Part shown: positions 18,744 to 56,162 of the stretch, piece by piece
How positions within the stretch are numbered: position 1 is the first letter of the stretch
Layout: each line of letters starts with the position of its first letter
From: Candidatus Parvarchaeum acidiphilum ARMAN-4
Lineage (GTDB): Archaea > Nanobdellota > Nanobdellia > Parvarchaeales > Parvarchaeaceae
NCBI GenBank assembly: GCA_002412065.1
Contig: GG730040.1
Location: forward strand, 2,311-66,310
Length of the DNA: 64,000 nt
Direction: 5' to 3'
Made by a program: the position numbers and the translations under genes
Notes under the pieces: model-generated
What the model was told of the DNA's origin: nothing
Database searches by the model: none
Seen by the model: only the letters and a program-made list of their open reading frames with translations

Positions 18744-19042
18744 TACCCGAAGAATATTTCCTGCTGCTTACAAGTATACTTTTTGTTATTGGGATTTACG
18801 GTATATTATCAAGGAGAGAAGGGATATCCATTATCATCTCTTCAGAAATTATAGTTAATGCGGCGATAATAAACTTTGTATCTGCTGCTAATTTTTATTC
18901 AGCATTGAATGGAATAAGCTACGCGTTGATAACTCTAATAATGATAGTATTTGAAACAGTCGTTTTTATCGCTTTAATGGTGATCTTCTCAAGAAAGACA
19001 GGTTCTCTTTCAATATCCAAGTTAGGGAGGTATAAAGGTTAA
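18740..19042 (+). CDS. nuoK: complex I-like subunit K
   Basis: 100-aa 3-TM protein (LFVIGIYGILSRRE...), ND4L-like. Confidence 0.75.
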   Translation: MIPEEYFLLLTSILFVIGIYGILSRREGISIIISSEIIVNAAIINFVSAANFYSALNGISYALITLIMIVFETVVFIALMVIFSRKTGSLSISKLGRYKG

Positions 19043-19043
19043 T

Positions 19044-22201: not shown

Positions 22202-23555
22202 AATGGAATACCTAAATCCACAATACGTTTTATTTGCTGGGATACTAGCTATTATACTTCTTGATTTTTTAAGGCATAGTGCAAAAAGTGATAAGAAGGC
22301 CTTTTTGCATTATCTAACTGCCGCTGTTTTTGGCCTTGCATTTATTTTTGATATTTTGTACGGCAATATGGATATAAGCTTGTTTTCGGAAGTTTCTTAT
22401 TCTCAGTTTGTGGTCGGCTTTATGTTATTTATCTCATTTTTTGTATATCTATTTATAATATCAGATAAGAATGATCATAGTATTGCATTAGATATATCCT
22501 ACCTATCTGCTGTTCTTGGTTCAACGCTTGTGGTAATATCAAGCAATTTAATCTCCTTATTTTTATCAATCGAGTTACTATCAATAGCGTCATATGCATT
22601 GGTTTACATGTATAAATCAGGGAATGCACTAGAAGGCGCTGTAAAATATCTTTCAACTGGCATAATCTCAATGGTTATTTTGATCTTTGGAATATCGCTT
22701 ATATATGCTGGGGCAGGTACACTGTCTTTCTCTTCCCTGCACGTAATTTCGTATCTCCCATTTATTGCTGGTGTTGCAATAGTTATAGCAGGGCTTGGAT
22801 TTAAATCAACATTGGTTCCTTTTCACATGTGGGCTCCTGATACTTATGAGGCCTCAAAAAGCTCTGTTACAGCATTTATATCTTCTGTATCCAAAGCAGC
22901 AGGCTTAATTGCAATGATAAGAATATTTTTCTTTGCATTGCCAGTTTCTTCAGCATTTGTAACGGTTCTTTTCCTTTCAATAGCTCTTATAACAATCTTT
23001 TTGAGCGCATTTCTTGCGTCTGTGCAAGACAGGATAAAGAGAATACTTGCGTATTCAAGCATTTCACAGGCAGGTTTTGCATTCATAAGCATAGCAGTTC
23101 TTACAACAAGAGGGATAAATGCTGCAATATTTTATATATTTGCATTTGCAGTAGCAGATGCAATAGTGTTCCTTGCATATGATATGTTTGAGAACAAAAA
23201 GATTATCTATAAAAAACAAAGCAATTCAATTACGCAAGTTTCAAGGATAAGTGCAATAGCTTTTTTTATAGGAATATTGTCACTTGCAGGGTTTCCACCG
23301 ACAATAGGATTTTTTGGAAAGCTTTTAATCTTTTATGCCTTGTTTAGCAGTGGTTACTTTTTAGTTGTTATACTTACATTTTTCGCTCTTCTGGTTTCTA
23401 CTTTCTATTATTTTAATATACTGTCAGAAATGCATGTTGTTGATAAAATAATTAAAAATAAAAATAAAATAAAAATAAAAACCGAACAAAGGATAAAAGA
23501 AACAATCCTAATTATACTTACATTAGCTCTTTTTGTAGGGGTAATATTTGCATAA
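22188..23555 (+). CDS. nuoN: complex I-like antiporter subunit N, with Lys/Asn-rich low-complexity C-terminal insertion
   Basis: PFHMWAPDTYEASKSSVTAFIS is the NuoN/ND2 motif. An A-rich coding repeat at 23441-23500 encodes IIKNKNKIKIKTEQRIKE. Confidence 0.8.
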   Translation: MEDYKMEYLNPQYVLFAGILAIILLDFLRHSAKSDKKAFLHYLTAAVFGLAFIFDILYGNMDISLFSEVSYSQFVVGFMLFISFFVYLFIISDKNDHSIALDISYLSAVLGSTLVVISSNLISLFLSIELLSIASYALVYMYKSGNALEGAVKYLSTGIISMVILIFGISLIYAGAGTLSFSSLHVISYLPFIAGVAIVIAGLGFKSTLVPFHMWAPDTYEASKSSVTAFISSVSKAAGLIAMIRIFFFALPVSSAFVTVLFLSIALITIFLSAFLASVQDRIKRILAYSSISQAGFAFISIAVLTTRGINAAIFYIFAFAVADAIVFLAYDMFENKKIIYKKQSNSITQVSRISAIAFFIGILSLAGFPPTIGFFGKLLIFYALFSSGYFLVVILTFFALLVSTFYYFNILSEMHVVDKIIKNKNKIKIKTEQRIKETILIILTLALFVGVIFA

Positions 23556-34091: not shown

Positions 34092-34775
34092 ATGTTAGAT
34101 AATCGTAAAGGTCAGTACTCTGTAGAATACACGATAATAATTGGTATTGGACTAAGCATTATTGCAGCATTTTTAATATATATCACCTTTTTTTACGGTT
34201 CTTTTTCATTGAGTTCATCAGCAAGTCAGATAAAAACTTTATCCGATACAATTGCAAATCATGTTAACTATATAGCCTCAGAAGGTCCAGGGTCTATGCA
34301 AACCTTTCCAATAACCCTTCCATTGTTGCAACAACAATATTCTTTTTTCTGTGGGGATATAATAAAATTGCAGACAACTACAGAATTGGGCGTTTCTAAA
34401 CCTGGTGAAAACGTGTCAGGGATGTTACCTTTAACGAGCGGAACATTTGATGCATTTGCACGAGCTGAAAATGGTAGTGCAATAATTGGGCTTCGTTTCT
34501 TAATTTCATATGTTCTTGGGTCTTACTCAGTTTCTTCTAATACCCTGTCTTATTCCCTTTCTTTTTATAACTACTCTGGGGATCTTAAAGGAACGGCTTT
34601 TAATATTTCATTGTTGTCTACAGGGGGGGCTTATATAACAAGTGCAAAGTCATCTACTACTTCAGGTCAGGCCTCAGGCACCCTCACATTGCCTTCTTCA
34701 GCCCCTGTTGAATATGTGCTTGAAGTTACTCCATCCGGATCGGGAGATTATTATTCTACTTGCGTAACGGGGTAA
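34092..34775 (+). CDS. archaeal type IV pilin-like protein (class III signal peptide)
   Basis: N-terminus MLDNRKG|QYSVEYTIIIGIGLSIIAAFLIY is a basic region, then a Gly at -1 and a hydrophobic helix. The mature domain is Ser/Thr-rich. Confidence 0.7.
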   Translation: MLDNRKGQYSVEYTIIIGIGLSIIAAFLIYITFFYGSFSLSSSASQIKTLSDTIANHVNYIASEGPGSMQTFPITLPLLQQQYSFFCGDIIKLQTTTELGVSKPGENVSGMLPLTSGTFDAFARAENGSAIIGLRFLISYVLGSYSVSSNTLSYSLSFYNYSGDLKGTAFNISLLSTGGAYITSAKSSTTSGQASGTLTLPSSAPVEYVLEVTPSGSGDYYSTCVTG

Positions 34776-41403: not shown

Positions 41404-42930
41404 ATGACATTTTTCAAGGAAGAAATAGAGAATAGAGAATACCAAACTAAAATATTTGAAACAGCAAAGACGGGTAATACACTTGTAGTGTTGCCAACCG
41501 GTCTAGGTAAAACAATAATAAGTGCAATGCTAGCAAATTATCGTTTGGAAAAGTACCCCTCATCTAAAGTGCTTTTTCTGGCCCCTACAAAACCTCTTGC
41601 AAATCAGCATTACAGAACCTTCTCTTCATTGCTTTCGCTTAAACAAGGTATGGCCAGCGGTTCCGTTTCAAGTAGTAGTAGAGGAAAAATCTATGAAGAT
41701 GCTCAGATAATATTTGCAACACCACAGACAATCGAGAATGACATGGAAAAAAAAGTTATAGATTTTTCTGATTTTAGCCTTTTAATAGTTGACGAAGCAC
41801 ATCATGCAATAGGAAATTATTCATATGTTAAAATCGCAAAATTGTACTCAGAACAGTCCTTTCATCCGCTTTTGTTGGGTCTTACTGCTTCCCCAGCATC
41901 AGATAGAGAAAAAATAAAGACAATATGTAGTAATCTTCATATAGCAAATGTTGAGATTCGCTCAGATGATGATCAGGATGTTATACCTTATATACAAAAA
42001 AAGGAAATAAACGAAATAAAAGTTGATTTACCCCCAAAATTAATTGAATTGTCTAATGATATAAAACTTCTCATTAGCGAGTCAATAAGTGAGTTACAAG
42101 AAACAGGGTTGCTAAAAAACACACAGAAAAGCAGAATAAATAAGGTGACTATTCTTTTACTTCAAAAAAGCCTTCAAAGGCAAATGTTGAGTGGTAAAAG
42201 AAATTATTATCTTATCAGAGGGATAATAATTACCTCCAAGCTTTTGAAGCTTTATCATGCTTATAACCTGCTTTCAACTCAAAGTCTTACTGCTTTTCTT
42301 AATTTTTTGGAAAAGATACAAAAAGGAAAAGCAAAGACAGATAAAGAGCTTTCATCTAATAGCAGGTTTATTGAAATAACTAAACGAACTTCTGAATTAG
42401 TAGAGCAAGGAATTGAACATCCAAAATTAAAGCAGCTTGAATCAATTTTTTCTAATTACTTCAATGAAGAGAAAAAAGCGATAATCTTTGCGCAGTATCG
42501 TGACACAGTGGATGTTATATGCAATAGTATATCAAATCTACCAGGGGTAAGGCCTATAAAATTTATAGGACAAGGTAAAGGAGGGCTATCACAAAAAGAG
42601 CAGGTAAATATAATAAAGGATTTTGAGTCGGGAGTATACAATGTTCTTGTTTCCACCAGCGTTAGTGAAGAGGGCATGTCAATAAAAGGCGTGGATATTG
42701 CAATTTTTTACGAAACCATACCTAGTGCGATAAGAAACATACAAAGAAGAGGGAGGGTTGGCAGATTTTCAGCAGGCAGTATCTTTATACTAATAACCAG
42801 AGGCACCAACGATGAAGGCTATTATTGGCTTTCTAAAAAAAGAGAAAAGACAATGAAAAATATAATAAAGAACATAAAAGAAAATCCAAACACAATAAAA
42901 CAAGATGGGACACTACACCCTTTTATTTAA
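41404..42930 (+). CDS. hef: Hef/FANCM-like superfamily 2 helicase (helicase domains only, no ERCC4 nuclease domain)
   Basis: REYQTKIFETAKTGNTLVVLPTGLGKT (Q motif and Walker A), DEAH box LIVDEAHHAIGN, SAT-like LGLTASP, and helicase C-terminal motifs QRRGRVGR. Confidence 0.8.
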   Translation: MTFFKEEIENREYQTKIFETAKTGNTLVVLPTGLGKTIISAMLANYRLEKYPSSKVLFLAPTKPLANQHYRTFSSLLSLKQGMASGSVSSSSRGKIYEDAQIIFATPQTIENDMEKKVIDFSDFSLLIVDEAHHAIGNYSYVKIAKLYSEQSFHPLLLGLTASPASDREKIKTICSNLHIANVEIRSDDDQDVIPYIQKKEINEIKVDLPPKLIELSNDIKLLISESISELQETGLLKNTQKSRINKVTILLLQKSLQRQMLSGKRNYYLIRGIIITSKLLKLYHAYNLLSTQSLTAFLNFLEKIQKGKAKTDKELSSNSRFIEITKRTSELVEQGIEHPKLKQLESIFSNYFNEEKKAIIFAQYRDTVDVICNSISNLPGVRPIKFIGQGKGGLSQKEQVNIIKDFESGVYNVLVSTSVSEEGMSIKGVDIAIFYETIPSAIRNIQRRGRVGRFSAGSIFILITRGTNDEGYYWLSKKREKTMKNIIKNIKENPNTIKQDGTLHPFI

Positions 42931-43397
42931 TTGCCAGTTATCTCAGTCTCGCAAGTTCCACCAGCAGAGTATTTTACTCCGTCTATAGAAACATTGCTAC
43001 CAGAGGTATTACCTATTATTATAGTATTAATACTTGGGTCTTTAATGGTGAAATCACCTGAGAATGAATTAATTCCTGCGGTATAATTACCTATTCTGTA
43101 TATATTAGAAGGGTTGCCATTTAAGTTACTTGCAAATACACTGTAGACTAATCCTGGGCTCCCATCTGATACAACTATCTTGAATCTATTTTGTTGAGAT
43201 GATGTGCTTATATTTGTTACATTAGCGTTGCATGGTGCAGGAGATCCGCTTCCACTATTTACTATTCCAGAGGGTAATATAGCAAAATGAAATACTGAGC
43301 TGGCTATAACTACTCCTATTATTAAAAATGAGATTAAAAGAATTATAACTATGAAATAATCAACCAAACTTGTACCTTTTAATTTGTTACTGCGCAT
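42927..43397 (-). CDS. pilin-like protein (class III signal peptide); last gene of a surface-protein operon
   Basis: From the internal Met: MRSNKLKG|TSLVDYFIVIILLISFLIIGVVIASS. The mature part is Gly/Ser/Asn-rich with a single Cys pair. Confidence 0.6.
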   Translation of the reverse strand: MRSNKLKGTSLVDYFIVIILLISFLIIGVVIASSVFHFAILPSGIVNSGSGSPAPCNANVTNISTSSQQNRFKIVVSDGSPGLVYSVFASNLNGNPSNIYRIGNYTAGINSFSGDFTIKDPSINTIIIGNTSGSNVSIDGVKYSAGGTCETEITGN

Positions 43398-44863
43398 ATA
43401 TAAACTAAATTTCTCCCCAAAAAGTTTGGTTTTGATATCCCTATCTGCTGAGGCAGGGAAGCAACGAAGTAGATTAAAGACTGTGCACATTGCTCTAATC
43501 CTGTAGCGTACAAAGCCGAATAAGCAATTTTGCCGGCATATGTAACTGCGTTAGGTGCAATATCATCCTTACATATAGAGTTATTAAAGCATTCTGCAGT
43601 TCCGAATCCTGCAAGTCCTATTCCTACTAGCAATCCAGGATTTGATGGCGCAAGAAGATCAGCGCCTATTCCCGATGCAACTGCTCTTGAACATTCATCT
43701 TCTATCCCCGAACTAGGGTAATTGTTAAGGAATGTAGCAGGTTCACATTCACTTGGCAAGCTTATTGAACTAGGAGGGAGTCTTGTGCCAGCAAGAGAAT
43801 TTAAATAGACTATGTATATCTGGGCTTTGTTGATTGATTTGCTGCTGTTCGGAAGCACAAATCCACTGCTGCTTGCGTTGCTCAAATTTTTATAGCTGAA
43901 TATAAGATTATCTCCAGGTCTTAAGTAAGTCGCATATGATTCATTTACTATAGAAGTGCTTTTTACTGGCTCAGTCAAAACACAGGAAGATGGTGCTTCA
44001 TATGAATTTGTAGTACTGTCATACCCTACAGTACAATTATTTCCATTACAGAAGTTAGTATACAGGTCTGTACAAGAATCAGTTTTACCGCTAATTGTTG
44101 AACATGTGTCCAAGGTGGTGTTAAAGGAACAGCCTTGTGATTCTTCGCATAAATCACTAGATATATTCATTGCAGCTGTAGGGGGTTTTGAACCATTTAA
44201 AGGAATATACTTTGTTGCAGTATATCCTTGTGTAAATGGCTGGTAACCAGGTTCGCTTCTACAGTTAAAATAATTAGATGACTGGGCCTCGCATATACTA
44301 GGATTGCTTAAATCACATGTAAATCCGTTTAAATTTGTGCTAGTTAAAGGATCAGAGCAGGACTGCACTGAAGTATGATTAAGGCAACTAACTTCAGTAG
44401 TATAAGCATTGCTTTCAAGATAAGTTGTAAGGTTATTTATTGTAAAGTTTTTATTTATATTTACATTAATAGCTGCACATGTTGCAGGGGAACTAGTAAG
44501 TACAGTCAAACCTTGGTTTGCACCATACTGGTTCCAACAGCTGGCTAAATCAGTTGCTACTGTTGAGAATACTTGAGATGGCTGGGCGCTAGGCCCATAA
44601 CCGGAAGTTGAAGTAGTGCATCCGAAAAGAGGAGGAGCTATTCCCAGAGCCTTAAGTGTACCACTTAAACAAAAGAATTTTGATACGCAAAGCCCGTTAT
44701 AATAAAAATTAGTGAATTCAGAACTTGCATAGCATATACCGCTGTTTGAAAGCGTTATTCCTACTATTAAAAGATAGCCGGCAATTGCTACTATTACAAC
44801 TATGAATATTACTGCTAAGATTATAAATAAAATACTCTCTCCAGGTGTTTCTGCCATAATCAA
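43379..44863 (-). CDS. large membrane-anchored Ser/Thr/Cys-rich surface protein (494 aa)
   Basis: N-terminal TM anchor (ILFIILAVIFIVVIVAIAGYLLIVGI), ~25 Cys, many N-x-S/T sequons and low-complexity Ser/Thr/Asn. Confidence 0.65.
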   Translation of the reverse strand: MIMAETPGESILFIILAVIFIVVIVAIAGYLLIVGITLSNSGICYASSEFTNFYYNGLCVSKFFCLSGTLKALGIAPPLFGCTTSTSGYGPSAQPSQVFSTVATDLASCWNQYGANQGLTVLTSSPATCAAINVNINKNFTINNLTTYLESNAYTTEVSCLNHTSVQSCSDPLTSTNLNGFTCDLSNPSICEAQSSNYFNCRSEPGYQPFTQGYTATKYIPLNGSKPPTAAMNISSDLCEESQGCSFNTTLDTCSTISGKTDSCTDLYTNFCNGNNCTVGYDSTTNSYEAPSSCVLTEPVKSTSIVNESYATYLRPGDNLIFSYKNLSNASSSGFVLPNSSKSINKAQIYIVYLNSLAGTRLPPSSISLPSECEPATFLNNYPSSGIEDECSRAVASGIGADLLAPSNPGLLVGIGLAGFGTAECFNNSICKDDIAPNAVTYAGKIAYSALYATGLEQCAQSLIYFVASLPQQIGISKPNFLGRNLVYICAVTN

Positions 44864-44920
44864 TTAGTGTTTTTATTTAATAAATTAATATCTTGTTCAA
44901 TAATTTCACTCAAATTGTTT

Positions 44921-45811
44921 TTATTGTCCGGGTATACAAACGAATACTCTGCTTTGGCTGTATATCATGTAATTGCTTAATTTGCCACATAAAGGCACAT
45001 AATAGTCACACCCACTCGTTTCATTTACTACATTTAAAGAGGGGTTGCCATTACTAAGCGAGCTTACGGTTTCCCTAGTTTGGTTTGTAGTCTCATTTGA
45101 GTATGCGCATATAGCTAAGTTGTTTATTTCAGGTTGTTGGTATCTTGCAACGTATTTGCATTGGTCTGTAAAGCTTATATCGCAGTTTTTAATTCCATTT
45201 GAAGGATAACCAAAGTAAGTTACAGTATAACTTGAGTTTGAAAGGTTATCAGAAGGATTGATATAAGCAGCGTTTCCATTGCTTCCGTTTGTTATAAACA
45301 CCATTTGGAGAGGATAATTTCCATTGTAATTACTGTCGATATCACTTATAATAGATGAATAATTTAAATTTTTACTTTGGCTGATAATTGACCCTTTGTA
45401 ACAGTTAAATATTTGGTCTAGATTACTAGCTGATAGAATTTGAGACCCTATTACAGCGTTACTACCTGAGAATAAACTAAAACAGGAAGAGGCTTCAGTA
45501 TAAAATAAAGATGCAAAATTTGTGCTACCCTGTTCGTCTATATTTGAGGACTGGAGACATTCTTTTTGTACTTGTGCGGACTGCGTTGGGCTTACTAATA
45601 TATTCGAAAGCCCAAAAAATGAAGCTGCACTAGTTAGAGGAGATAAAAACGTGTTTACTATCTTATACTGTGTAAATGCCGTAAAGCAACTTAATCCAAA
45701 GTTCAATGTCCCGAAGGAAGTAATAAGGGAAAAAGATACAACTGCAAGTACTATACCCGCCACTATAACAAGTATAACAAAAGCTATTGTTAATAGGATG
45801 CCCTCCTCCAT
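44921..45811 (-). CDS. membrane-anchored Ser/Asn-rich, Cys-containing surface protein (296 aa)
   Basis: N-terminal TM (ILLTIAFVILVIVAGIVLAVVSF), multiple Cys and N-glycosylation sequons. Confidence 0.6.
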   Translation of the reverse strand: MEEGILLTIAFVILVIVAGIVLAVVSFSLITSFGTLNFGLSCFTAFTQYKIVNTFLSPLTSAASFFGLSNILVSPTQSAQVQKECLQSSNIDEQGSTNFASLFYTEASSCFSLFSGSNAVIGSQILSASNLDQIFNCYKGSIISQSKNLNYSSIISDIDSNYNGNYPLQMVFITNGSNGNAAYINPSDNLSNSSYTVTYFGYPSNGIKNCDISFTDQCKYVARYQQPEINNLAICAYSNETTNQTRETVSSLSNGNPSLNVVNETSGCDYYVPLCGKLSNYMIYSQSRVFVCIPGQ

Positions 45812-45972
45812 TACGAGCCACCGCCCAGCAGATTTCCAAAATATGCAAATGGAGAACTACTATGAGAACTTGCATAAAATAGGATTATCACTAGTCCTAT
45901 GATAGCTACAGCTGTTATTATAACTAGAATCAACCATATAATCCTCCATTCTACGCTTCCTTTATTATTCAT
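45811..45972 (-). CDS. micro membrane protein (53 aa) with class III-like N-terminus
   Basis: MNNKG|SVEWRIIWLILVIITAVAIIGLVIILFY. Its stop overlaps the next ATG (TAATG). Tightly packed between 45974..46483 and 44921..45811. Confidence 0.4.
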   Translation of the reverse strand: MNNKGSVEWRIIWLILVIITAVAIIGLVIILFYASSHSSSPFAYFGNLLGGGS

Positions 45973-45973
45973 A

Positions 45974-46483
45974 TTACTGTCCTATGCATGCTGCACAATA
46001 AGGCCCGTCCCCAGATATGCATGCAGGCACATTTATTGCACAGTTTTGTATGTCTGTTGCGTTGTTTGCTACTATCGTACTCTCAGAACAACTAAATAAA
46101 TCGGCCGTATTAGTTGGAGATACAACACTACATGCGCTTGTTATATTTGCAGGAGGGCTGGCCATGCACGATTCTACTAAAGAGGTGTTCCCTTGTCCAT
46201 TAACCCAATAATCATAATAACACCAATGTCGGATACAGGTCTGCACTGCTGTAGCCGCGTTGAAACATGCATTTTCATCATAGCAACGAAAAAGTGCTGT
46301 ACCCTCCATCCTATTTGGATATCCATATTCTGCGCTTGTGAACTGGTTCTGTAGTAAAGCGGTGGAAGTATCGCATCCTACTGGGAAAATAGAGGAATAA
46401 TTATTGTAAAACAGAAAGAACATAGTAAGTGCTATAACTATCCCGATAATGACTTCAAAGAATAGAAACTGTTCAACATCCAT
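45974..46483 (-). CDS. membrane-anchored cysteine-rich protein (169 aa, ~18 Cys)
   Basis: N-terminal TM (FFEVIIGIVIALTMFFLFY), then a Cys-dense domain (CYDENACFNAATAVQTCIRHWCYYDYW...CAACIGQ). Confidence 0.6.
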   Translation of the reverse strand: MDVEQFLFFEVIIGIVIALTMFFLFYNNYSSIFPVGCDTSTALLQNQFTSAEYGYPNRMEGTALFRCYDENACFNAATAVQTCIRHWCYYDYWVNGQGNTSLVESCMASPPANITSACSVVSPTNTADLFSCSESTIVANNATDIQNCAINVPACISGDGPYCAACIGQ

Positions 46484-47006: not shown

Positions 47007-47444
47007 TCAATTGATTATATTTCCGTTTGATGCTATGACTGGAGAGTATGAAATATTAGTTGGGGTATAATATATATAGCCGTTTCCACTGAAAGAACTT
47101 CCTAATGAGACCGAAGTTAAATTGCATTCTGTAGACTCTAAAGCAGGAAGATATGTTTTTGAGCATACAAAGTTGGTGTAATTTACTCCGGATATTATCA
47201 TTGATATCCCATCTATTTTTATATTCTCATTTAACAGGTTTTGGAATTCAATATAAAATGTAGATTTTGAAGGGATATAACCCTGCTGCAATACACGGAA
47301 ACCGGAGAATCCTGAATAACTTGGAGTTGATGTAGTCCCTGTCAGAGACGGGAAAAAAGTAAATATTATGTAAAAGATTGATGCTATTACTATTATAGCT
47401 ATCCCATACATTAGCACCATCTCAAGTGATTCCTGTGCTCTCAT
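47007..47444 (-). CDS. pilin-like protein (class III-type signal peptide)
   Basis: MRA|QESLEMVLMYGIAIIVIASIFYIIFTFF followed by a Ser/Thr/Asn/Tyr-rich beta-type domain. Confidence 0.55.
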   Translation of the reverse strand: MRAQESLEMVLMYGIAIIVIASIFYIIFTFFPSLTGTTSTPSYSGFSGFRVLQQGYIPSKSTFYIEFQNLLNENIKIDGISMIISGVNYTNFVCSKTYLPALESTECNLTSVSLGSSFSGNGYIYYTPTNISYSPVIASNGNIIN

Positions 47445-47721: not shown

Positions 47722-47907
47722 TTAAGTCGTGAATGTTTTAAATTCCGCTTGCTTTTTGTTGATGTCTTTTTTATAAGTTTCATTGCTTACTGTATGGTTT
47801 TTAACCGTGAATGTCCTCCCGCAATAGAAGCATTTTACTTCTTTTAAAGCAGAAGTTTTTCTGTATTTACCGCATTTAGGGCACTTAACAATCCTGTAAA
47901 CAGTCAT
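47722..47907 (-). CDS. small zinc-ribbon protein (61 aa)
   Basis: CPKC...CFYC in a basic protein. Translationally coupled to the upstream minD-like gene (ATGA overlap). Confidence 0.5.
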   Translation of the reverse strand: MTVYRIVKCPKCGKYRKTSALKEVKCFYCGRTFTVKNHTVSNETYKKDINKKQAEFKTFTT

Positions 47908-48623
47908 ATTTTTATTAATTGCTTTGCTAGATTAGTTATATCCTTAGCAGCAAAGCTTTTTGGAGAAGACAAAACTAAAGGAACACCTATTTTTAATGCA
48001 TTATACACCTTTTTGTCATCCCTAATCCTCCATACGTTTTTTATTTCCATAAGGTCCTTTGTTTCTTTTTCTGTCATTTGATCTTTTATTCTGTTATTTA
48101 CTTTGTTTATTACAAGTCCAATTATATTGATATTTGCGTTTTCTAGTTCTTCTTTTAGTTTTTTAGCTTCTATTATAGAGGTTATATCCGGATTAGACAC
48201 TATAAGACTGCTGGCATTTTTGATTAGTTTTATAAAATTTATCTCATAAGACGGTCTTGAGTCTATTATTATGAAATCATATCTATCTTCAATCTTTTCA
48301 ATGTAACGGTTTATGTTTATTAGTTTGTTTGGCAGTCTGCTCTCTTCGGTTCTTGTTACCCTTGAAGGTAAAATGTGGAATTTGGGGTTATCTCCCATGT
48401 ATATGGCATTTTCAATTTCGGTTCTACCGTTCAATACATCTTCTAATGAGTACTTAAACCCAACAAAGCCATAATAAATCGCGACATGTGGAGTTTCTAG
48501 GTTTGCGTCTATAAGTAAGGCACTTTTATTTAATTCAGAAATAGCTGTAGCTAAGTTCACAGATGTAGTTGTTTTTCCTACACCGCCTTTTGGGCTCATC
48601 ACTACTATAATCTTAGCCGACAT
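47904..48623 (-). CDS. minD: MinD/ParA-family P-loop ATPase
   Basis: Deviant Walker A IVVMSPKGGVGKTTTSVNLA. Walker B-like FIIIDSRP. Confidence 0.85.
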   Translation of the reverse strand: MSAKIIVVMSPKGGVGKTTTSVNLATAISELNKSALLIDANLETPHVAIYYGFVGFKYSLEDVLNGRTEIENAIYMGDNPKFHILPSRVTRTEESRLPNKLININRYIEKIEDRYDFIIIDSRPSYEINFIKLIKNASSLIVSNPDITSIIEAKKLKEELENANINIIGLVINKVNNRIKDQMTEKETKDLMEIKNVWRIRDDKKVYNALKIGVPLVLSSPKSFAAKDITNLAKQLIKI

Positions 48624-48655: not shown

Positions 48656-49180
48656 ATGGATACTGAGAAAAAGTGCGTAATTTGTGGCCGAGAGGCAGTT
48701 TTTTACTCAGCATACCTAAAGCAGGATCTTTGTAAAAAACACTTTGAAAGAATGCTGATAAAAAGAGTTAAGTCAAACATGAATTCATATAAAATAAAAA
48801 ATCAGAATTTTAAATTAGGCAGCGAAAACAAATGTGGAAAAGAATTTTTAAAATTTGTTTTTAGGGGCATGGAAAGTGAGAATGGAAAAGAGTTATGTTC
48901 TTATACTCTGGAGGATTTTGCGATTTCAGTTATGAGCTTTTTTCTTTTTCATGAACCTTCTAATAAAAAAATAGAAGGCAATGAAAAGTTTGATCCGCTG
49001 TTTAATGTTTCTGAGAAAGAAATAATTAGCTTTTTTAGGCTAAAAAAAATCAAATTAAATGAAATAAAAAGGAACAAGAAGGAAGAAACGGTTCTCTCAT
49101 TTTTAAGAGACATAGAAGAACGTCGTCCAGGGGGCATGATTTCTTTAGTAAAAGCAGGGATAAACTTAGGAATTATTTAG
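48656..49180 (+). CDS. hypothetical protein with N-terminal Cys-x2-Cys (174 aa)
   Basis: MDTEKKCVICGRE...LCKKHF; otherwise unrecognised. Confidence 0.4.
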   Translation: MDTEKKCVICGREAVFYSAYLKQDLCKKHFERMLIKRVKSNMNSYKIKNQNFKLGSENKCGKEFLKFVFRGMESENGKELCSYTLEDFAISVMSFFLFHEPSNKKIEGNEKFDPLFNVSEKEIISFFRLKKIKLNEIKRNKKEETVLSFLRDIEERRPGGMISLVKAGINLGII

Positions 49181-49445
49181 CTTTATAATACCTTTTATTT
49201 ACTGTGTTACCCCAACTAAAATTTCCAATTTCATTTTTATTCTCAACTGTCACCTTTCCCTCCTTTAATGCAAGGTACAAATAATGGTAGACAAGCCTGC
49301 TTGAAATTTTTCTCCCTGTTTTTTTGAGCGTTTTATATATCTCATAACCGGTTTTGTTGCCATTTGATAGCTCGGCTAATATTGCTTCCATAAGCTCTTT
49401 GTCTATTTTTCTTACCATTTTAGCTACATTGTGGCATCGATTCAT
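49173..49445 (-). CDS. small winged-helix transcriptional regulator (PadR/ArsR-like)
   Basis: LMEAILAELSNGNKTGYEIYKTLKKTGRKISSRLVYHYLYLALKEGKV is a typical recognition helix and wing. Confidence 0.5.
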   Translation of the reverse strand: MNRCHNVAKMVRKIDKELMEAILAELSNGNKTGYEIYKTLKKTGRKISSRLVYHYLYLALKEGKVTVENKNEIGNFSWGNTVNKRYYKAK

Positions 49446-49926
49446 TTATAGAAAGGCATATGTACTTTAATATATCATTATAAGCAGTTTGATTGTTTGC
49501 GAATCCGCCAACCTTATAGTACTTTCCATTAAATATGATCATCGGAACGCGGTTTATCCCTACCTGATTAAATATTGAAACTGCTGAATCTGGCAAGTTA
49601 TCAGTTGTATTGCTATTGTATGCAGATATATTAAATTTCCAAGCACAAAAATACCCACTGTAAAATGTATTGTTTCCCCATAAACCAAAAAGGGAAGTTA
49701 CATTTTGAAATGAATTCACAGTATCTGTGCAAGTTCTGCAATTATCAGCATAATAAATAATTAATGAAGGCTCATTCTGTGAGCATAGCCCTGACATGTT
49801 TAAGTTAGTTTCATGAAATGAATAAAAGTTGTTTAATGAATAAGTTTGGTAATAAAAGAATATCGCTATTATTAAAAGCACAACGATTATAACAGTATAC
49901 AAATAATATCTAAATCTAGTTAGCAT
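49420..49926 (-). CDS. membrane-anchored thioredoxin-fold protein with CxxC (extracytoplasmic thiol-disulfide oxidoreductase candidate)
   Basis: N-terminal TM (YLYTVIIVVLLIIAIFFYY), then LIIYYADNCRTCTD (CxxC) and RVPMIIFNGKYY (thioredoxin-fold cis-Pro region). Several N-x-S/T sequons. Confidence 0.6.
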   Translation of the reverse strand: MLTRFRYYLYTVIIVVLLIIAIFFYYQTYSLNNFYSFHETNLNMSGLCSQNEPSLIIYYADNCRTCTDTVNSFQNVTSLFGLWGNNTFYSGYFCAWKFNISAYNSNTTDNLPDSAVSIFNQVGINRVPMIIFNGKYYKVGGFANNQTAYNDILKYICLSINESMPQCS

Positions 49927-50215
49927 AAAATGAAATGTTTAATTTTTCTATTTCGTTTTGGCTGCAGCTGTTTCCTTTATTGACTATGCATATGTTAGTG
50001 TAATTGCCTAAATCCTTATAGACATAACTGTAGGCGGGGGATGAAAAATAAGAAGGATCAACTATAAGATTGAATATTTTTGAATAGCTACAGGAAGTTG
50101 CATTTATAAGTCTATAAACTTGAAATTGAAAAGGGCTGTATATCCCAGTTTCATTGTTATAATTGAAGATATGCCCGTTTCCCTTAAAAACAATGTTTAT
50201 AGTCATCTGTTTCAT
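49916..50215 (-). CDS. hypothetical small protein (99 aa), Cys- and N-sequon-containing
   Basis: ORF in the operon with flanking secreted proteins. No TM. Confidence 0.3.
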   Translation of the reverse strand: MKQMTINIVFKGNGHIFNYNNETGIYSPFQFQVYRLINATSCSYSKIFNLIVDPSYFSSPAYSYVYKDLGNYTNICIVNKGNSCSQNEIEKLNISFYAN

Positions 50216-50240
50216 TTTTAATAAGGAGTTTATTATATCA

Positions 50241-50811
50241 CTATAATTTGTGCTCCCTTTTGAATAAATTTAAGTCATATTTCAGTGGATTAACGATCGA
50301 ATAATTCTGTAATCCAGATGCGGCTATCTCAGAATAATATGCCTTCATCTGTGAATAAGTGATATTAAAAAGTTGTATTATCTCAGTAGAGTTAAGTTTA
50401 TTATCTATAAATTGGTAAAGCTGGCTTTCTGCAGCAGTGCAGTTTGTGTAATTTTCAACACTGCACATTGATACAAGAGAGATATCTCTTAATATATCGC
50501 TGTATTCTTTTTGTACTTCTGACGAATTTATGGGTATTGTCGGAGCAAGAGGTTCCATTTCATAAGTACACTCATTAAACGATTGAGTTGTTTGATAATC
50601 CCCCATAGAAATAGTATAAGTCTTTGTCCGATAGCATACTTAAATTTATATTGTAACTGGAAATAAAATCCCCAAGTTTTATGCTGTTTGAGAGATTTTG
50701 AGGCTTGTTTATAAAAGTCGGCTTAAAGGGGTAAACATACAATATTGCAGTAAAAGCTGCAAGTAATATAACCAATACAATTAGTACTTTTATTACGCCA
50801 TTACTTTCCAT
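50241..50811 (-). CDS. membrane-anchored small secreted protein, probably one gene split at a G5 run (50581-50585) into ORFs 50575..50811 and 50241..50606
   Basis: The upstream ORF gives a TM anchor (VIKVLIVLVILLAAFTAILYVY) ending ...YYFYGGLSNNSIV*. Removing one G fuses it to YQTTQSFNECTYEMEP..., a 4-Cys N-sequon-rich domain. Confidence 0.4.
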
Positions 50812-51598
50812 CAGCTAATTTTTCGCTTATTTTCTTTGCGGTTTCTTCTGGTGAATAATTTATTCTGTTTATTCCTAGAATATCAATAGGATCAATATTT
50901 CCAGACATAACTTCTATCTCAAAGTGTTCTGCTCCTGACTGTTTTATACAAAAAGTTATGTCCTTTTTGATTTTTTTAGTTATTTTAATCAAAAAGTTTG
51001 CTATATCAAACGCCAAAACATTATCTATTTCCTCTGCAGGAGTGTGTTTTATAGTCGTTATCCTGAGAAGCTCGTTCTTTTTCGGTGAAAATGGAGTATA
51101 AGCTATTAATTTCTCTGTTTTGTATACTTCTCTGTTGCCAGTATAGTTTAAGCTTTCACATACATGGCATTTTTCGGTATTATGCATTGGTACCGGCAAA
51201 ACAACTAAATCCCAGTAATCATGACCATTAACATACCTGCTTACAGAGATGTTCTTCCCTAAGTCGTAATTTTTCAATTCGTTAAGTCTCTCGCTTATTA
51301 TTATCAAAAGTTTCTCTATATCATCAGCAGAATAGCTTAAAAAGTTTGAAGAATGCTTTTCATTTTCTACAATTAATTCTTCGTATCCGTGTGCATTGGA
51401 GTGTTTAAAAAATGTTCCTTCCAACTGGTATTTAGAAGGCTGTACTCTATCTTTCACTTCATATATCTTTATATATCCTCCTTTAAACTCTATTGATTTT
51501 ATGCTATTTTTTAGCGGCATACATTCCCTGCAGCCAGCTTTTTCATTGCTTAGCAGGTCAAATGTCAGATCTACTGGGTCTAACCTAAACTCTTCCAT
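50801..51598 (-). CDS. hypothetical protein, possible GalT/HIT-like nucleotidyltransferase fold
   Basis: Cys pairs GCRECMP and CHVCES, and a His-containing FKHSNAHGYEELIVENEKH. The match is weak. Confidence 0.25.
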   Translation of the reverse strand: MEEFRLDPVDLTFDLLSNEKAGCRECMPLKNSIKSIEFKGGYIKIYEVKDRVQPSKYQLEGTFFKHSNAHGYEELIVENEKHSSNFLSYSADDIEKLLIIISERLNELKNYDLGKNISVSRYVNGHDYWDLVVLPVPMHNTEKCHVCESLNYTGNREVYKTEKLIAYTPFSPKKNELLRITTIKHTPAEEIDNVLAFDIANFLIKITKKIKKDITFCIKQSGAEHFEIEVMSGNIDPIDILGINRINYSPEETAKKISEKLADGK

Positions 51599-53176
51599 TT
51601 AGCCCTCCAATCTCCCGATTATTCTTGCGTATGCTGGCCTTGTAATGAGCAAACCTATTAATGAAGCCAATATTGTGGTAAGTGCGAATCCTGCGAATAA
51701 ACTTGCAGTTGAAAACAGCAATGGGAACATTATCGCTGCGAAGGAAAAGAAGGAAACAAATATTATGAAAAAGGCCCTACTTATTCTCTTTTTAGTAACA
51801 GCATACTCTATTTGGGAAGAACCCCTTCTCATTTCATCAGTTATTATTATCTGGTCATCAACCGAGATACCTATGCTTGCTATTATACCTGCCATGCTTG
51901 GTATATCTAAAGTCCAATGTATTACTGCAGCTACGCCGATAACTATGAATATTTCCGTTATACTTGTTATAAGTATTAATGAAGATATCTTATAATCCCT
52001 ATATCTCAAAAATATTACTACACTTACAAGTATGAATGCAATTAAAAGTAAAACATATATCTGCTTTATAAATTGGCTGCCCGCAGTTGGCGAAACCGAG
52101 CTTATTGAAACTATTTTTAATGGGACTGGAAGGCTTCCAGATTGCATGACTGCTTGTAGGGTTTTCATGTCTGCAGTAGCCTGTTGTTGGTCTGTGCCGC
52201 TTCCTTCTATTGTTATTGCACCGTTAAAGTTTGTTAATATATTCTCCGAGATTAAGAGTGGTTGGCCCTGCTCTACCCCGTTTAGATATAAATGTATTCT
52301 TTTATTGAAGTAACCTGGGTTAGTAGTAGATGGCTTTAATGCTTTTACCGCATCTTCAAAGTTCTTTGCTGCGCCTGAAGCAAGCTGTATACCAAACTGG
52401 AATTGGTAGCCGTTTGATGCGCTTGGAGGTTGGTAAACCCCAAATGGACAGCCAGAAGAAAGACACACGTCTAATATGCTATCGCTTGAATTGCTACTGT
52501 TAAACACTGTAACATTTCCTATGGTTGCATAGAATTTACCCTGATTCTGTATCAATGATAAAGCCTGGCTTTCTCCTATATTTGGCATGCTTACCATTAT
52601 AAATGAATTTCCAGAAAGAGCTTGTACTGTGCTGACAGTAGTACCGCTTATGCCATATACATCCAATCTTTTTGAAAGAGTAGTTTCCAAGTTTGAAATA
52701 ATCGTAGAATTATAGCTTGTAGAGTTTGGGACCACCTCTATCTGTGTACCGCCTATTATGTCTAGCCCATAGTTCAAGTGGGTGTATGGAACGTTTTCTG
52801 TTTGTATTGTTGATGAATTAAAGGTTGTGTTCGGTTCTACGAATATGTGTGTTGTATTGCTTATAAGAATATACGGGAAAATCTCATTTTCATAGGTTAA
52901 ACTCAATGAAGTATTGACTATTGCGCTTTTGTTCAATTGTGCGTAGAATTGCTGGATGTTATGTACTGGAACTCCGTCTACAGCAGTTATTATAGACCCT
53001 GTTTGCAAACCTATAACACCTCTTGAACTCAAATTTCCTATGTATGAGTTGACAGGCATATACACTACCTGTGCACCATTAACATTTGTAAGATTTGGCT
53101 GTATTGCAAGGAAAGATACTACTACCAATACAATCATTAATATTATCCTCCAGTCATAAAAGATCGATTTTACCAT
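51599..53176 (-). CDS. secD: protein-export membrane protein SecD
   Basis: N-terminal TM, a large extracytoplasmic domain, then six C-terminal TM helices (ISVDDQIIITDEMRRG...). Immediately downstream of secF. Confidence 0.75.
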   Translation of the reverse strand: MVKSIFYDWRIILMIVLVVVSFLAIQPNLTNVNGAQVVYMPVNSYIGNLSSRGVIGLQTGSIITAVDGVPVHNIQQFYAQLNKSAIVNTSLSLTYENEIFPYILISNTTHIFVEPNTTFNSSTIQTENVPYTHLNYGLDIIGGTQIEVVPNSTSYNSTIISNLETTLSKRLDVYGISGTTVSTVQALSGNSFIMVSMPNIGESQALSLIQNQGKFYATIGNVTVFNSSNSSDSILDVCLSSGCPFGVYQPPSASNGYQFQFGIQLASGAAKNFEDAVKALKPSTTNPGYFNKRIHLYLNGVEQGQPLLISENILTNFNGAITIEGSGTDQQQATADMKTLQAVMQSGSLPVPLKIVSISSVSPTAGSQFIKQIYVLLLIAFILVSVVIFLRYRDYKISSLILITSITEIFIVIGVAAVIHWTLDIPSMAGIIASIGISVDDQIIITDEMRRGSSQIEYAVTKKRISRAFFIIFVSFFSFAAIMFPLLFSTASLFAGFALTTILASLIGLLITRPAYARIIGRLEG

Positions 53177-53177
53177 A

Positions 53178-54113
53178 TCACACCTTAGCTACCTGTTTTT
53201 CTACCTCTTTAAATTTCAAGCCGTATAACTGAGTAGAACCATTTAATATCCAGACTGTAAAGTCATCAAATATAACTCCTATTATCAGTATTATTGCTAT
53301 TTCATGAAGAGTCGAATTAGTTGTTCCTAGGAACAGAATAAGAAATGTTACCAAAGCTGCAGCATCCATGGTAAGTGAAGTTTTTATGGTTTTAGCTAAA
53401 CGATAATGCATACTTGCTTCCTCTCTTTTCAATATGTTTGTTGCCAATATTATATTTCGATCTGCAGAATAACCCATTATCATAAGTATTCCTGCAATAG
53501 AAGCAGTTGAAAAGCTAAATCCTATAATGTCAAGAACCCCCACAATATTGATTACATCACTTATTATACTTATTACATTTGAAAATGCCTGCCACATGCT
53601 TCTAAAGTAGAAAAGAGAAACAGCTGCTACAAGCACGAATGCTATACCTAGCAATATCAAAGAGCTGTAAAGAGAGCTTTGAGCAAGCGTTGCACTTACA
53701 AAGTCTACGCTTGAATCTTTGCTGTTTACAGGTATTTTAAGTACGCTTGAAATGCTGTTTTCCAATAAAGTTGTATTTACATTCTTTCCAACGGTTATTG
53801 AATACCCTGTTATAGTATTTGTAAACGGCGCTTTTACGACGCTTACCGTGACGCTTTGTTTAAGATCTGTTCCCAAAGAGCTTGCTATCAGCGTAGGAGA
53901 AATACTTTGGTTTGTACTAATTACTATGTTTGTCCCTCCCGCTAGTGATATTCCTTCATTCACAATTTGGCCGTGAACATGGTAATAATAGCCTATAAAT
54001 GAAGCAAAAAATATAACGAAAATTATGGGTATAAATATCATTTTTCTATAGTTCTTAAGATAATATTCAACTACATTATCTATCGTTTTGCTCACCTCAT
54101 TTCTTATACCCAT
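53178..54113 (-). CDS. secF: protein-export membrane protein SecF
   Basis: 311 aa, N-terminal TM plus periplasmic domain, then a 5-TM bundle (GILMIMGYSADRNIIL). Confidence 0.75.
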   Translation of the reverse strand: MGIRNEVSKTIDNVVEYYLKNYRKMIFIPIIFVIFFASFIGYYYHVHGQIVNEGISLAGGTNIVISTNQSISPTLIASSLGTDLKQSVTVSVVKAPFTNTITGYSITVGKNVNTTLLENSISSVLKIPVNSKDSSVDFVSATLAQSSLYSSLILLGIAFVLVAAVSLFYFRSMWQAFSNVISIISDVINIVGVLDIIGFSFSTASIAGILMIMGYSADRNIILATNILKREEASMHYRLAKTIKTSLTMDAAALVTFLILFLGTTNSTLHEIAIILIIGVIFDDFTVWILNGSTQLYGLKFKEVEKQVAKV

Positions 54114-54964: not shown

Positions 54965-55618
54965 ATGAAAGGCCAGTTTTCATTTGAATTCATGATAGAT
55001 GTTGCATTTGTTTTAGTTCTAATAGCCTTCATAGCAGTTTTCTTTGCGCATATCTCCGCTGGAAATCCAACGGTTTCAGATATGAATGGGATTTGTTATG
55101 AGATGGCCGATTCAATAAATTCCATGGCAAACTCCAATGGTTTTCAAACTATACAGTACTTGCCGTTACTTACATTTACAAAACAGGAGAATTACACAAT
55201 AAACGTTTCAAATGGAATAATAATAATATATGAAAAGTCACTTTATGGAGGAAAATTACTTGCAGGGCAGGATTTAACTTCATGCGGTGCAGATACTGCG
55301 CTCACAGAAAATGAATCATTTGGTTTATCAAATCTTGTTTTGTATACAAACCAAACAAACATTGCATTGGCCTATGCTTATGCCAATTACTCCGGCAACC
55401 TCCCAAATTACATCTTTGTAGGCGGATTTACAGGTGCGGTTAATTTGTCATTGGACTATTCAAATGGTACTATCACTACATTAGATGTTCAGAATTCGCC
55501 ATTTACATACTTTGCAGATACAAAATCTATTCCATTACCGGCTGGTGTTTATAATTTTGTAGCAACTAGCGTGGCCTCTCCTGACATTTACGTCGATTTG
55601 CCTTTTTCAGTCGGTTAA
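54965..55618 (+). CDS. archaeal type IV pilin-like protein (class III signal peptide)
   Basis: MKG|QFSFEFMIDVAFVLVLIAFIAVFFAHI. The mature domain is Asn/Thr/Tyr-rich. Confidence 0.7.
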   Translation: MKGQFSFEFMIDVAFVLVLIAFIAVFFAHISAGNPTVSDMNGICYEMADSINSMANSNGFQTIQYLPLLTFTKQENYTINVSNGIIIIYEKSLYGGKLLAGQDLTSCGADTALTENESFGLSNLVLYTNQTNIALAYAYANYSGNLPNYIFVGGFTGAVNLSLDYSNGTITTLDVQNSPFTYFADTKSIPLPAGVYNFVATSVASPDIYVDLPFSVG

Positions 55619-55685: not shown

Positions 55686-56162
55686 ATGGCAAAAGGACAG
55701 TCAGCATTAGAATACATGATGACTTATGGTTGGGCAATACTAATCATAGTTATCGTAGCTGTAATCTTGTATTCTATGGGAATTTTCAACCCTAGAGCAA
55801 GTGTAACTGCAACAAGTAGTGGGTTCAGCCCATTCGCAGCAAGTGCAGCAGTCTGCAGTAGCAGTAGTAGTAAATTAACAGTAGCTTTTACTGTTGGTGG
55901 ACTACCTAACGGAGCTTCTTCTGCAACCATAACTGGAGCAAGTTACTCGTCTGGAAGTGGAATTAGTCCGGCTATTAACTCTGGCACAGCAAGCCCAACG
56001 GTGGTGTCTTCTGGTAGCAGCTTTAATGTAACCTTCAGCACTGTAACATGTACACCAGGGGTTGGATTTAGTGCTTCTGGTGTAGTGAACTACTCCGTTA
56101 CAACAGCAGCAGGTACTGCAACTTACTCTGCAACAGGAACAATAGCAGGAACAGGCAGCTAA
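55686..56162 (+). CDS. archaeal type IV pilin-like protein (class III signal peptide), Ser/Thr/Ala/Gly-rich
   Basis: MAKG|QSALEYMMTYGWAILIIVIVAVILYS, then a low-complexity S/T/A/G domain. Confidence 0.7.
   Translation: MAKGQSALEYMMTYGWAILIIVIVAVILYSMGIFNPRASVTATSSGFSPFAASAAVCSSSSSKLTVAFTVGGLPNGASSATITGASYSSGSGISPAINSGTASPTVVSSGSSFNVTFSTVTCTPGVGFSASGVVNYSVTTAAGTATYSATGTIAGTGS

Follow-up and report, generated by a model that had tools for sequence, protein, structure and literature searches.

A predicted membrane-anchored thioredoxin-fold CxxC protein encoded with SecDF in Candidatus Parvarchaeum acidiphilum ARMAN-4

Membrane-anchored thioredoxin-fold proteins that carry a CxxC motif outside the cytoplasmic membrane are well known in bacteria. 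Thioredoxin itself (Trx; TrxA in E. coli) is built on a beta-alpha-beta/beta-beta-alpha core, with CxxC at the start of a helix and a hydrophobic residue-Pro pair before strand beta-4. TlpA, ResA, StoA (3erw) and CcmG consist of an anchor and an outward-facing compact domain with small inserts, not a helical domain, and they are reductases fed by CcdA or DsbD for the maturation of cytochrome c or the spore coat. Proteins of the DsbA type, such as those of E. coli and Vibrio, donate disulfides outside the membrane and have a V-Pro loop followed by xxxxNGK, and the Gram-positive DsbA-type proteins BdbD and MdbA are membrane-tethered. Extracellular disulfide formation in archaea is poorly understood, more so in the ultrasmall DPANN archaea that live at very low pH. 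A DsbA-like lipoprotein has been annotated in Haloferax and the haloarchaea (PMC6098224), and our search of the literature on disulfide systems of Parvarchaeota and ARMAN organisms returned nothing specific. Here we describe a gene for a thioredoxin-like (Trx-like) protein in a 64,000-nucleotide stretch of Candidatus Parvarchaeum acidiphilum ARMAN-4 (assembly GCA_002412065.1, contig GG730040.1, positions 2,311 to 66,310 of the forward strand), which is referred to below as the window. The predicted core of this protein is the same as that of thioredoxin, its anchored and outward-facing layout is the same as that of the TlpA group, and its proposed job is the same as that of DsbA; like BdbD and MdbA, it is predicted to be tethered to the membrane.

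On balance, and with modest confidence, we favour the view that the Trx-like protein is an outward-facing, glycosylated and membrane-tethered thiol-disulfide oxidoreductase that acts on proteins exported by the Sec system, probably as a disulfide donor, and that the protein encoded immediately upstream of it, referred to here as the partner, is its first or main client. We infer the redox activity, the oxidase direction and the range of substrates from the fold, the positions of CxxC and Pro, and the synteny described below.

The product of the Trx-like gene is identical in sequence to BJBARM4_0155 of Candidatus Parvarchaeum acidiphilum ARMAN-4. Its name in UniRef is 'Thioredoxin domain-containing protein', and the thioredoxin domain has thus already been recognised. 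The exact sequence of 168 amino acids (aa) is carried by many acid-mine-drainage contigs, and the DNA of the window, with a G+C content of 33%, is of the ARMAN-4 type. The original prediction placed a signal anchor ahead of a CRTC motif and of the segment RVPMIIFNGK, and each of the three was found in the translated DNA together with the hydropathy profile. The protein contains six Cys residues, at positions 48, 63, 66, 94, 157 and 167, and seven N-x-S/T sequons.

The only hydrophobic segment of the protein spans residues ~7-27 and reaches a Kyte-Doolittle 19-residue mean of up to 2.5. R4 and R6 lie ahead of this segment, and the 37 residues that follow it contain no basic residue at all. On inspection, the segment is overlong for a cleaved signal peptide and has no small-x-small site. 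One to five K or R residues are present within the first 12 residues, ahead of the hydrophobic segment, in 24 of the 27 remaining aligned relatives. Three have none: P0015 and P0030 lack an initial Met and are probably truncated at the N-terminus, and P0025 starts inside the hydrophobic segment. The seven sequons of the ectodomain compare with 3.6 ± 1.6 in composition-preserving shuffles (P=0.04), and three of the seven, N43, N75 and N99, recur in 28, 27 and 28 of 28 aligned sequences, respectively. Expressed per 100 aa, the Trx-like protein has 4.2 sequons and the N-terminally anchored proteins of the window have 2.1-5.0, whereas the proteins of the window that have at least 100 aa and no predicted membrane segment have 0-1.5. 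Because archaeal N-glycosylation occurs at the outer face of the membrane, the conserved sequons point to a location outside. The charge distribution, which follows the positive-inside rule, and the conserved sequons strongly suggest that the protein is N-glycosylated and adopts a type-II, N-in/C-out topology with the CxxC domain outside the cytoplasmic membrane. This is the orientation that had been proposed, and nothing in these data places the CxxC domain in the cytoplasm.

The structure of residues 36-168 was predicted by AlphaFold2 (AF2) after trimming of the anchor, using a 28-sequence alignment that included distant members of the family. The model used has a predicted local distance difference test score (pLDDT) of 90.9 and a predicted template modelling score (pTM) of 0.87, and the five models span 84-91. 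A first run with 18 close homologues gave a poor model (pLDDT 55), which was discarded. Secondary structure elements are arranged in the order beta-CxxC-alpha-(hairpin)-beta-alpha-alpha-Pro-beta-beta-alpha. In model numbering, a strand (19-24) leads into CxxC (28-31), which is followed by a helix (31-42), a beta-hairpin (47-54) and a second strand (59-64); two helices (65-69 and 78-88) then precede Pro93, strands 94-97 and 101-104, and a final helix (110-124). C63 and C66 correspond to model residues 28 and 31, and helix alpha-1 as assigned by DSSP begins at C66. P128 directly precedes strand 94-97, and V127-P128 presumably forms the cis-Pro loop. The modelled part is predicted to be a compact thioredoxin/TlpA-type domain with a beta-hairpin insert.

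Structural and profile comparisons place this domain among thioredoxins. In a Foldseek search of 350,542 PDB chains, nearly all of the top 50 matches considered are thioredoxins, TrxP, StoA, the C-terminal domain of DsbD or TlpA-like proteins, the sole unrelated chain being 5xoc_B; their probabilities are 0.99-1.00, their E values range from 9e-5 to 3e-3 and their TM-scores from 0.45 to 0.61. The best structural matches are classical thioredoxins, such as spinach Trx m (1fb0) and Methanosarcina Trx (3hz4). When the family profile was aligned by hhalign with E. coli TrxA (the TrxA and DsbA reference sequences were entered by hand), CRTC fell on CGPC with E=4e-5 and a probability of 70%, and a 9-residue insertion corresponding to the hairpin appeared after the active-site helix. 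Sub-threshold Pfam matches of individual family members likewise fall in families of the thioredoxin clan. The thioredoxin fold anticipated for this protein is thus borne out by the AF2 model, by Foldseek and by the register of CxxC in hhalign. The further proposal of a DsbA/TlpA-like enzyme holds for a compact domain of the TlpA or plain thioredoxin type but not for DsbA architecture. The probability of the hhalign match to E. coli DsbA was 1.9%, no DsbA was present among the top 50 Foldseek matches, and the sole sequence signal for DsbA, obtained by phmmer, is non-significant (E=0.1-1.7) and covers residues 95-157 in the C-terminal third, where the V-P loop is aligned with GVP of Vibrio DsbA. 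The absence of the inserted helical domain excludes a DsbA: in the model, just two short helices, 65-69 and 78-88, separate the central strand from the Pro loop.

Other identities were considered and rejected. The lowest E values in PDB sequence searches belonged to designed Kelch propellers and arose from the stretch VPxIVFNGKYYKVGGF, one motif that was matched repeatedly to six-fold repeats. Each repeat match is insignificant alone, the query has a single copy of the motif and the model contains no propeller, which rules out a Kelch protein. By inspection, the PxxxTxxC context of peroxiredoxins is missing, and so are the CxxxC and His that would be needed for Sco-like copper binding.

By its sequence, the family is apparently an orphan that is limited to Parvarchaeales. 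Seventeen homologue clusters came from a word-indexed search of 5.8 billion proteins, and exhaustive HMMER profile searching of 1.84 billion representatives added just four more genuine clusters and one artefact, P0022, a repeat protein whose match is confined to residues 113-139. After a further profile search, the clusters numbered 29. All named members come from Parvarchaeales-type archaea (ARMAN-4, ARMAN-5, Acidifodinimicrobium, Rehaiarchaeum and one 'Nanoarchaeota archaeon'). Conservation was counted in a 28-sequence alignment that includes the protein of the window and covers identities of 35-89% over the aligned domain and 31-88% over the full length. CxxC is kept in 26 of the 28 sequences, with a freely varying dipeptide (RT, KT, PA, PT, PS, TT, QA, QT, KY or KS). 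C48, C94 and P128 are invariant (28/28), C157 and C167 are nearly so, and the residue before P128 is V in 23 members and I in five. Losses of Cys always occur in pairs: C157 and C167 are both missing in P0021, and C63 and C66 are both missing in P0024 and P0025. Such a pattern is expected of three disulfide-forming pairs, and C48-C94 and C157-C167 are likely to be structural disulfides.

The Trx-like gene belongs to a tightly packed operon. On the minus strand, genes for SecF, SecD, a 265-aa protein, the partner of ~297 aa, the Trx-like protein and a winged-helix protein follow one another without gaps or with overlaps (Table 1). The stop codon of the partner gene overlaps the start codon of the Trx-like gene by 11 nt (ATGCTAACTAG), which suggests that their translation is coupled; the overlap is 11-14 nt in the closer loci and 4 nt in the two most distant ones. 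The full gene order is shared with ARMAN-5, with ARMAN-4-like contigs and with more distant lineages. The most distant loci (L010 of Rehaiarchaeum, and L012) lack the genes for the 265-aa and winged-helix proteins and keep those for SecF, SecD, a protein of 295-296 aa and the Trx-like protein. These ~296-aa proteins share with the partner an anchor and the Cys of a 'VFGCN' motif, have C-x6-C in place of C-x7-C and retain four of its six Cys, and their profile match to the 297-aa partner family is weak or undetectable. Judged by gene order, the conserved module consists of SecDF together with the partner and the Trx-like protein. The cluster counts of the two families are close, 29 for the Trx-like protein and 28 for the partner, which suggests one copy of the Trx-like gene per genome, although a paralogue may exist elsewhere. 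The adjacency to SecDF that had been claimed is therefore correct: SecD and SecF are encoded on the same strand without intergenic gaps, and this arrangement is conserved in related loci.

Table 1. Features of the Trx-like gene and its neighbourhood in the window (1-based positions).
Feature	Position	Strand	Evidence
Trx-like gene, 168 aa	49420..49926	(-)	single open reading frame, ATG start; homologue family; AF2 model; Foldseek
Signal anchor, residues ~7-27, with R4 and R6 ahead	49846..49908	(-)	hydropathy, charge positions
CRTC motif, C63 and C66 (residues 63-66)	49729..49740	(-)	DNA read directly: TGC AGA ACT TGC
RVPMIIFNGK, residues 126-135: presumed cis-Pro loop V127-P128, strand beta-3 and turn	49522..49551	(-)	DNA read directly
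SecF	53178..54113	(-)	NCBIfam SecF E=1.3e-34; synteny conserved
SecD	51599..53176	(-)	NCBIfam SecD E=4.5e-80, Pfam SecD_SecF_C; upstream in every related locus
265-aa protein, probably cytoplasmic, function unassigned by family	50801..51598	(-)	between SecD and partner
Partner gene, ~297-aa single-pass, sequon-heavy protein with six Cys	49916..50811	(-)	tblastn of ARMAN-5 orthologue, three frames
Small winged-helix protein, PadR-like (weak)	49173..49445	(-)	Pfam PadR E=0.013, below threshold; synteny
Four consecutive N-terminally anchored, sequon-rich orphan exported proteins; candidate substrates	42927..46483	(-)	sequences, Cys and sequon counts

The partner belongs to an orphan family of 28 clusters that is limited to Parvarchaeota and has no sequence match in the PDB. 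It carries 15-17 sequons, and its six Cys residues are invariant among Parvarchaeum-type members. An internal duplication suggested by the repeated C...C-x7-C spacing was rejected, as hhalign of the two halves gave a probability of 0.7%. In the window, the partner gene is split into open reading frames (ORFs) at 50575-50811 (78 aa), 50241-50606 (121 aa) and 49916-50215 (99 aa) by two single-base (+1) insertions near 50576 and 50257, each of which lies within a small cluster of substitutions. The gene is intact in the otherwise ~99%-identical contigs L007-L009, and the copy in the window retains all six Cys codons. The frameshifts reflect either an error of assembly or sequencing or a strain-specific pseudogene.

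Among the remaining genes of the operon, that for the 265-aa protein overlaps the partner gene by 11 nt and is present in loci L001-L009 and L011 and absent from L010 and L012. CRECxP and CHVC motifs occur in its product, for which Pfam, NCBIfam and the PDB gave no match. The winged-helix gene, in its longest ORF, shares 26 nt with the 3' end of the Trx-like gene, and in relatives it is called with a length of 81-93 aa. The outer domain of SecD (residues ~238-243) has a Cys pair in the sequence VCLSSGCP, which is also present in the orthologues of ARMAN-5 and L003 and may form a disulfide. Convergent with the SecDF operon is a gene of conserved synteny at 48656-49180 on the plus strand. Its 174-aa product matches the N-terminal LIM-type zinc finger of TtuA/NcsA only (Pfam TtuA_LIM_N, E=1.2e-5), the rest being unmatched. 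Further along, a 61-aa double-CxxC zinc-ribbon protein is encoded at 47722-47907 (-), where the start of its gene overlaps the end of that for a MinD/ParA-type ATPase (47904-48623, minus strand) by 4 nt, and this pair is conserved in related loci. In the distant locus L012, a thioredoxin-reductase-like flavoprotein (Pyr_redox_2) is encoded at 9844-10797, 3.3 kb downstream of the Trx-like gene; it probably belongs to an ordinary cytoplasmic system, and there is none at the matching place in the window.

The exported proteins of the window are consistent with a demand for disulfides. Within the cluster of four orphan exported proteins, those of 169, 296 and 494 aa (43379-46483) have 12, 10 and 24 Cys, respectively, and the 187-aa ORF (42927-43490) has four, or two if the start used in relatives is taken. 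Cys counts and positions are the same in the orthologues of ARMAN-5 and L003. The Cys-rich trio is syntenic in loci of the Parvarchaeum/Acidifodinimicrobium type only and is absent from L010 and L012. The Trx-like gene had been described as adjacent to genes for Cys-rich surface proteins, which is right in part: the strongly Cys-rich genes, with 12, 10 and 24 Cys, lie 3-7 kb away, and the gene immediately upstream encodes an anchored protein with six Cys. All 11 anchored or exported proteins of the window have even Cys counts, namely 24, 12, 10, 6 and 6 (one of these being the partner, with its three pieces summed) and two in each of the rest (the 187-aa ORF having four or two). The outer domain of SecD has two Cys, and many cytoplasmic proteins of the window have zero or odd numbers. 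The chance of 11 even counts in 11 proteins is 0.5^11, or ~5e-4, on the assumption that even and odd are equally likely. Such counts suggest pervasive extracytoplasmic disulfides, as had been implied for the secreted proteins, and hence a demand for oxidation, not reduction.

Two observations on these exported proteins stand apart. In the 169-aa protein, a C-x-x-C motif (CAAC, CPAC or CPPC) is conserved close to the end, three residues short of the C-terminus. Four proteins with exactly two Cys each, encoded at 47007-47444 (-), 54965-55618 (+), 55686-56162 (+) and 34092-34775 (+), have N-termini that resemble archaeal signal peptides of class III (type IV pilin-like), such as MAKGQSALEYMMTYGWAILII and MRAQESLEMVLMYG; of the four, that at 34092-34775 alone has a match, a weak one, to Pfam Class_IIIsignal (E=0.031).

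The favoured role can be described as a cycle of thiol-disulfide exchange. The Trx-like protein would be made from one tightly packed operon together with SecF, SecD and the partner, and its CxxC dithiol or disulfide would be exposed outside the cytoplasmic membrane, exchanging with Cys residues of proteins that emerge from the Sec translocon. Donation is the most likely direction: a substrate thiolate would attack the oxidised C63-C66 disulfide, and a mixed disulfide on C63 would then be resolved to yield the substrate disulfide and a reduced CxxC. The co-translated partner would be the first substrate, and other exported Cys proteins may follow. Re-oxidation could occur through an unseen quinone-linked partner or directly in a habitat that is acidic and rich in Fe(III) and O2. 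Genome surveys report that Parvarchaeum carries a cytochrome bd quinol oxidase, along with few genes for complexes III and IV (PMC10134863). Given such an oxidase, a quinone pool, and thus a sink for electrons, is plausible, and with few genes for complexes III and IV there is little obvious need for a reductase of the ResA/CcmG type, which serves cytochrome c maturation.

Several points weigh against this role. Pfam and NCBIfam scans of the Trx-like protein gave zero matches. Among PDB sequences, neither the single sequence nor either of two profiles significantly matched a thioredoxin or DsbA, the best E value being ~0.1, and the Foldseek TM-scores are modest, at about 0.5. The 64-kb window contains no candidate for a DsbB/VKOR partner, for which a search of the genome had been suggested, and none for CcdA/DsbD, the membrane subunits at 18267-23555 having been outside any family search. 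The multi-pass membrane proteins of the window are SecD, SecF and these subunits, which are Cys-free, and the only other Cys-bearing membrane protein (17300-18166) has weak CdvA and acyltransferase matches and none to VKOR, DsbB or CcdA. Thiol-disulfide exchange depends on a thiolate, and the very low external pH in the habitat disfavours this form. The redox potential of CxxC, and hence the direction of exchange, cannot be read from sequence. Finally, for a protein so tightly coupled in translation to one partner, the role of a dedicated subunit is a better fit than that of a housekeeping enzyme.

The orthologues without CxxC, one of which is carried by GCA_021794235.1, add to this side of the balance, and they weaken the earlier proposal that the Trx-like protein could form the many disulfides of the Cys-rich neighbours. 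P0024 (8001-8522 of L003) and P0025 (L004) occupy the orthologous syntenic position and have lost both Cys of the motif. The site reads TTSV in the former (...YGPNTTSVNTE...) and TTST in the latter (...YGPNTTSTYTE...), and a new N-T-T sequon arises there. Both proteins retain the V-P loop and the pairs C48/C94 and C157/C167. Among the loci without CxxC, L003 alone was read, and there the partner has six Cys and the neighbouring proteins have 12, 10 and 24 Cys at the same positions. Since CxxC has been lost while the Cys of all these neighbours are kept, the motif is dispensable in at least one lineage, and the Trx-like protein cannot serve there as the sole general catalyst. It is possible that another catalyst takes over, that oxidation in the habitat is spontaneous, or that the core role of the protein is non-catalytic. 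These orthologues provide a natural control, which shows that the Trx-like protein is not the sole route to a disulfide-rich surface proteome.

The loss of CxxC bears directly on an unlikely but pertinent alternative, in which the Trx-like protein serves the ~297-aa partner chiefly as a dedicated chaperone or a non-catalytic subunit, possibly at SecDF. The thioredoxin fold would then be a binding scaffold, as in redox-inactive domains of protein disulfide isomerases, and CxxC would be a third structural disulfide. Such a role would account for two syntenic orthologues in which CxxC is gone and a sequon stands in its place, while the other two Cys pairs, P128 and the remaining fold are kept. 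It is likewise favoured by the start/stop overlap with the partner gene, conserved throughout the family, and by the near-equal cluster counts, which are consistent with an obligate pair. However, retention of CxxC in 26 of 28 members across identities of 31-88%, with a dipeptide that varies freely, is typical of a functional redox motif; the motif sits exactly at the canonical active-site position, and it is through the conserved V/I-Pro loop that catalytic enzymes with a thioredoxin fold bind their substrates. Another possibility, itself rather improbable, is that catalysis runs the other way. An extracytoplasmic reductase or isomerase working in the manner of TlpA, ResA, CcmG or DsbG would have the same fold and topology, would receive electrons through a CcdA/DsbD-type protein, and would keep selected exported Cys reduced or rescue those that are over-oxidised or mis-paired. 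An anchor with a compact domain that lacks the DsbA helical insert is the TlpA/ResA/CcmG layout, and StoA, the C-terminal domain of DsbD, TrxP and TlpA-like proteins are among the Foldseek matches. The best sub-threshold Pfam matches point the same way: Redoxin (0.0014, one member) and AhpC-TSA (0.002, two members), ahead of Thioredoxin_3 (0.067) and Thioredoxin_7, such matches being found in one to three of 28 members and below the gathering score. Some members also have CPTC, CPAC or CPSC. In the window, however, there is no CcdA/DsbD-like multi-pass Cys protein, the StoA-type match is poorer (root-mean-square deviation of 7.8 Å) than those of plain thioredoxins, and the even Cys counts indicate a need for oxidation. 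The residue before the cis-Pro is V or I in DsbA and thioredoxin and Thr in DsbC, DsbG and CcmG; the V/I of the Trx-like family, not T, therefore speaks against a reductase, although as a lead only. In addition, with so few complex III/IV genes reported (PMC10134863), the maturation of c-type cytochromes is hardly in evidence.

Two further readings are effectively refuted: a thioredoxin or glutaredoxin of the ordinary cytoplasmic kind, and a chance ORF that carries a Kelch-like motif. A thioredoxin fold does not by itself settle the compartment, and designed Kelch propellers gave the best E values in the PDB. Arguing against the cytoplasm are a hydrophobic N-terminal segment of 20 residues, sequons that are conserved and two additional pairs of conserved Cys, and a chance ORF is excluded by ~30 homologue clusters that are conserved in fixed synteny. 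The favoured role as an outward-facing oxidoreductase might also be extended to a lineage-specific two-protein disulfide relay, formed by the Trx-like protein and the partner and coupled physically to SecDF, that operates without DsbB or VKOR. We regard this extension as quite improbable. Oxidative folding would then take place at the exit of the translocon, on the acid-exposed face of the membrane, with the partner or the environment (Fe(III) or O2) as the oxidant. If true, a relay coupled to SecDF would be a previously undescribed archaeal route to extracytoplasmic disulfides.

Compared with the known systems, the Trx-like protein is closest in structure to thioredoxin and differs from it in several respects. 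It is predicted to be anchored and extracytoplasmic, its helix alpha-1 is followed by an inserted beta-hairpin of 9 residues, and it has C[RK]TC instead of CGPC and carries two extra conserved Cys pairs and conserved sequons, with no significant sequence similarity. Its structural match to proteins of the TlpA type is poorer than that to plain thioredoxin, V/I and not T precedes the Pro, and neither a CcdA/DsbD partner nor a client in cytochrome c or spore-coat maturation is evident here. In contrast to DsbA, it has no inserted helical domain of ~65 residues (4-5 helices), its motif is not CPHC, and no DsbB or VKOR is seen in the window. The practical gain is modest, as the fold and the general role are familiar and the UniRef label is already present. 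The locus nevertheless offers a concrete and expressible candidate for archaeal extracytoplasmic disulfide formation, and both its partner and its link to SecDF are fixed. What sets it apart from the described systems is an orphan Parvarchaeales family, a fixed SecDF-partner-Trx operon, probable extra disulfide pairs together with predicted glycosylation, and a lineage that has lost CxxC.

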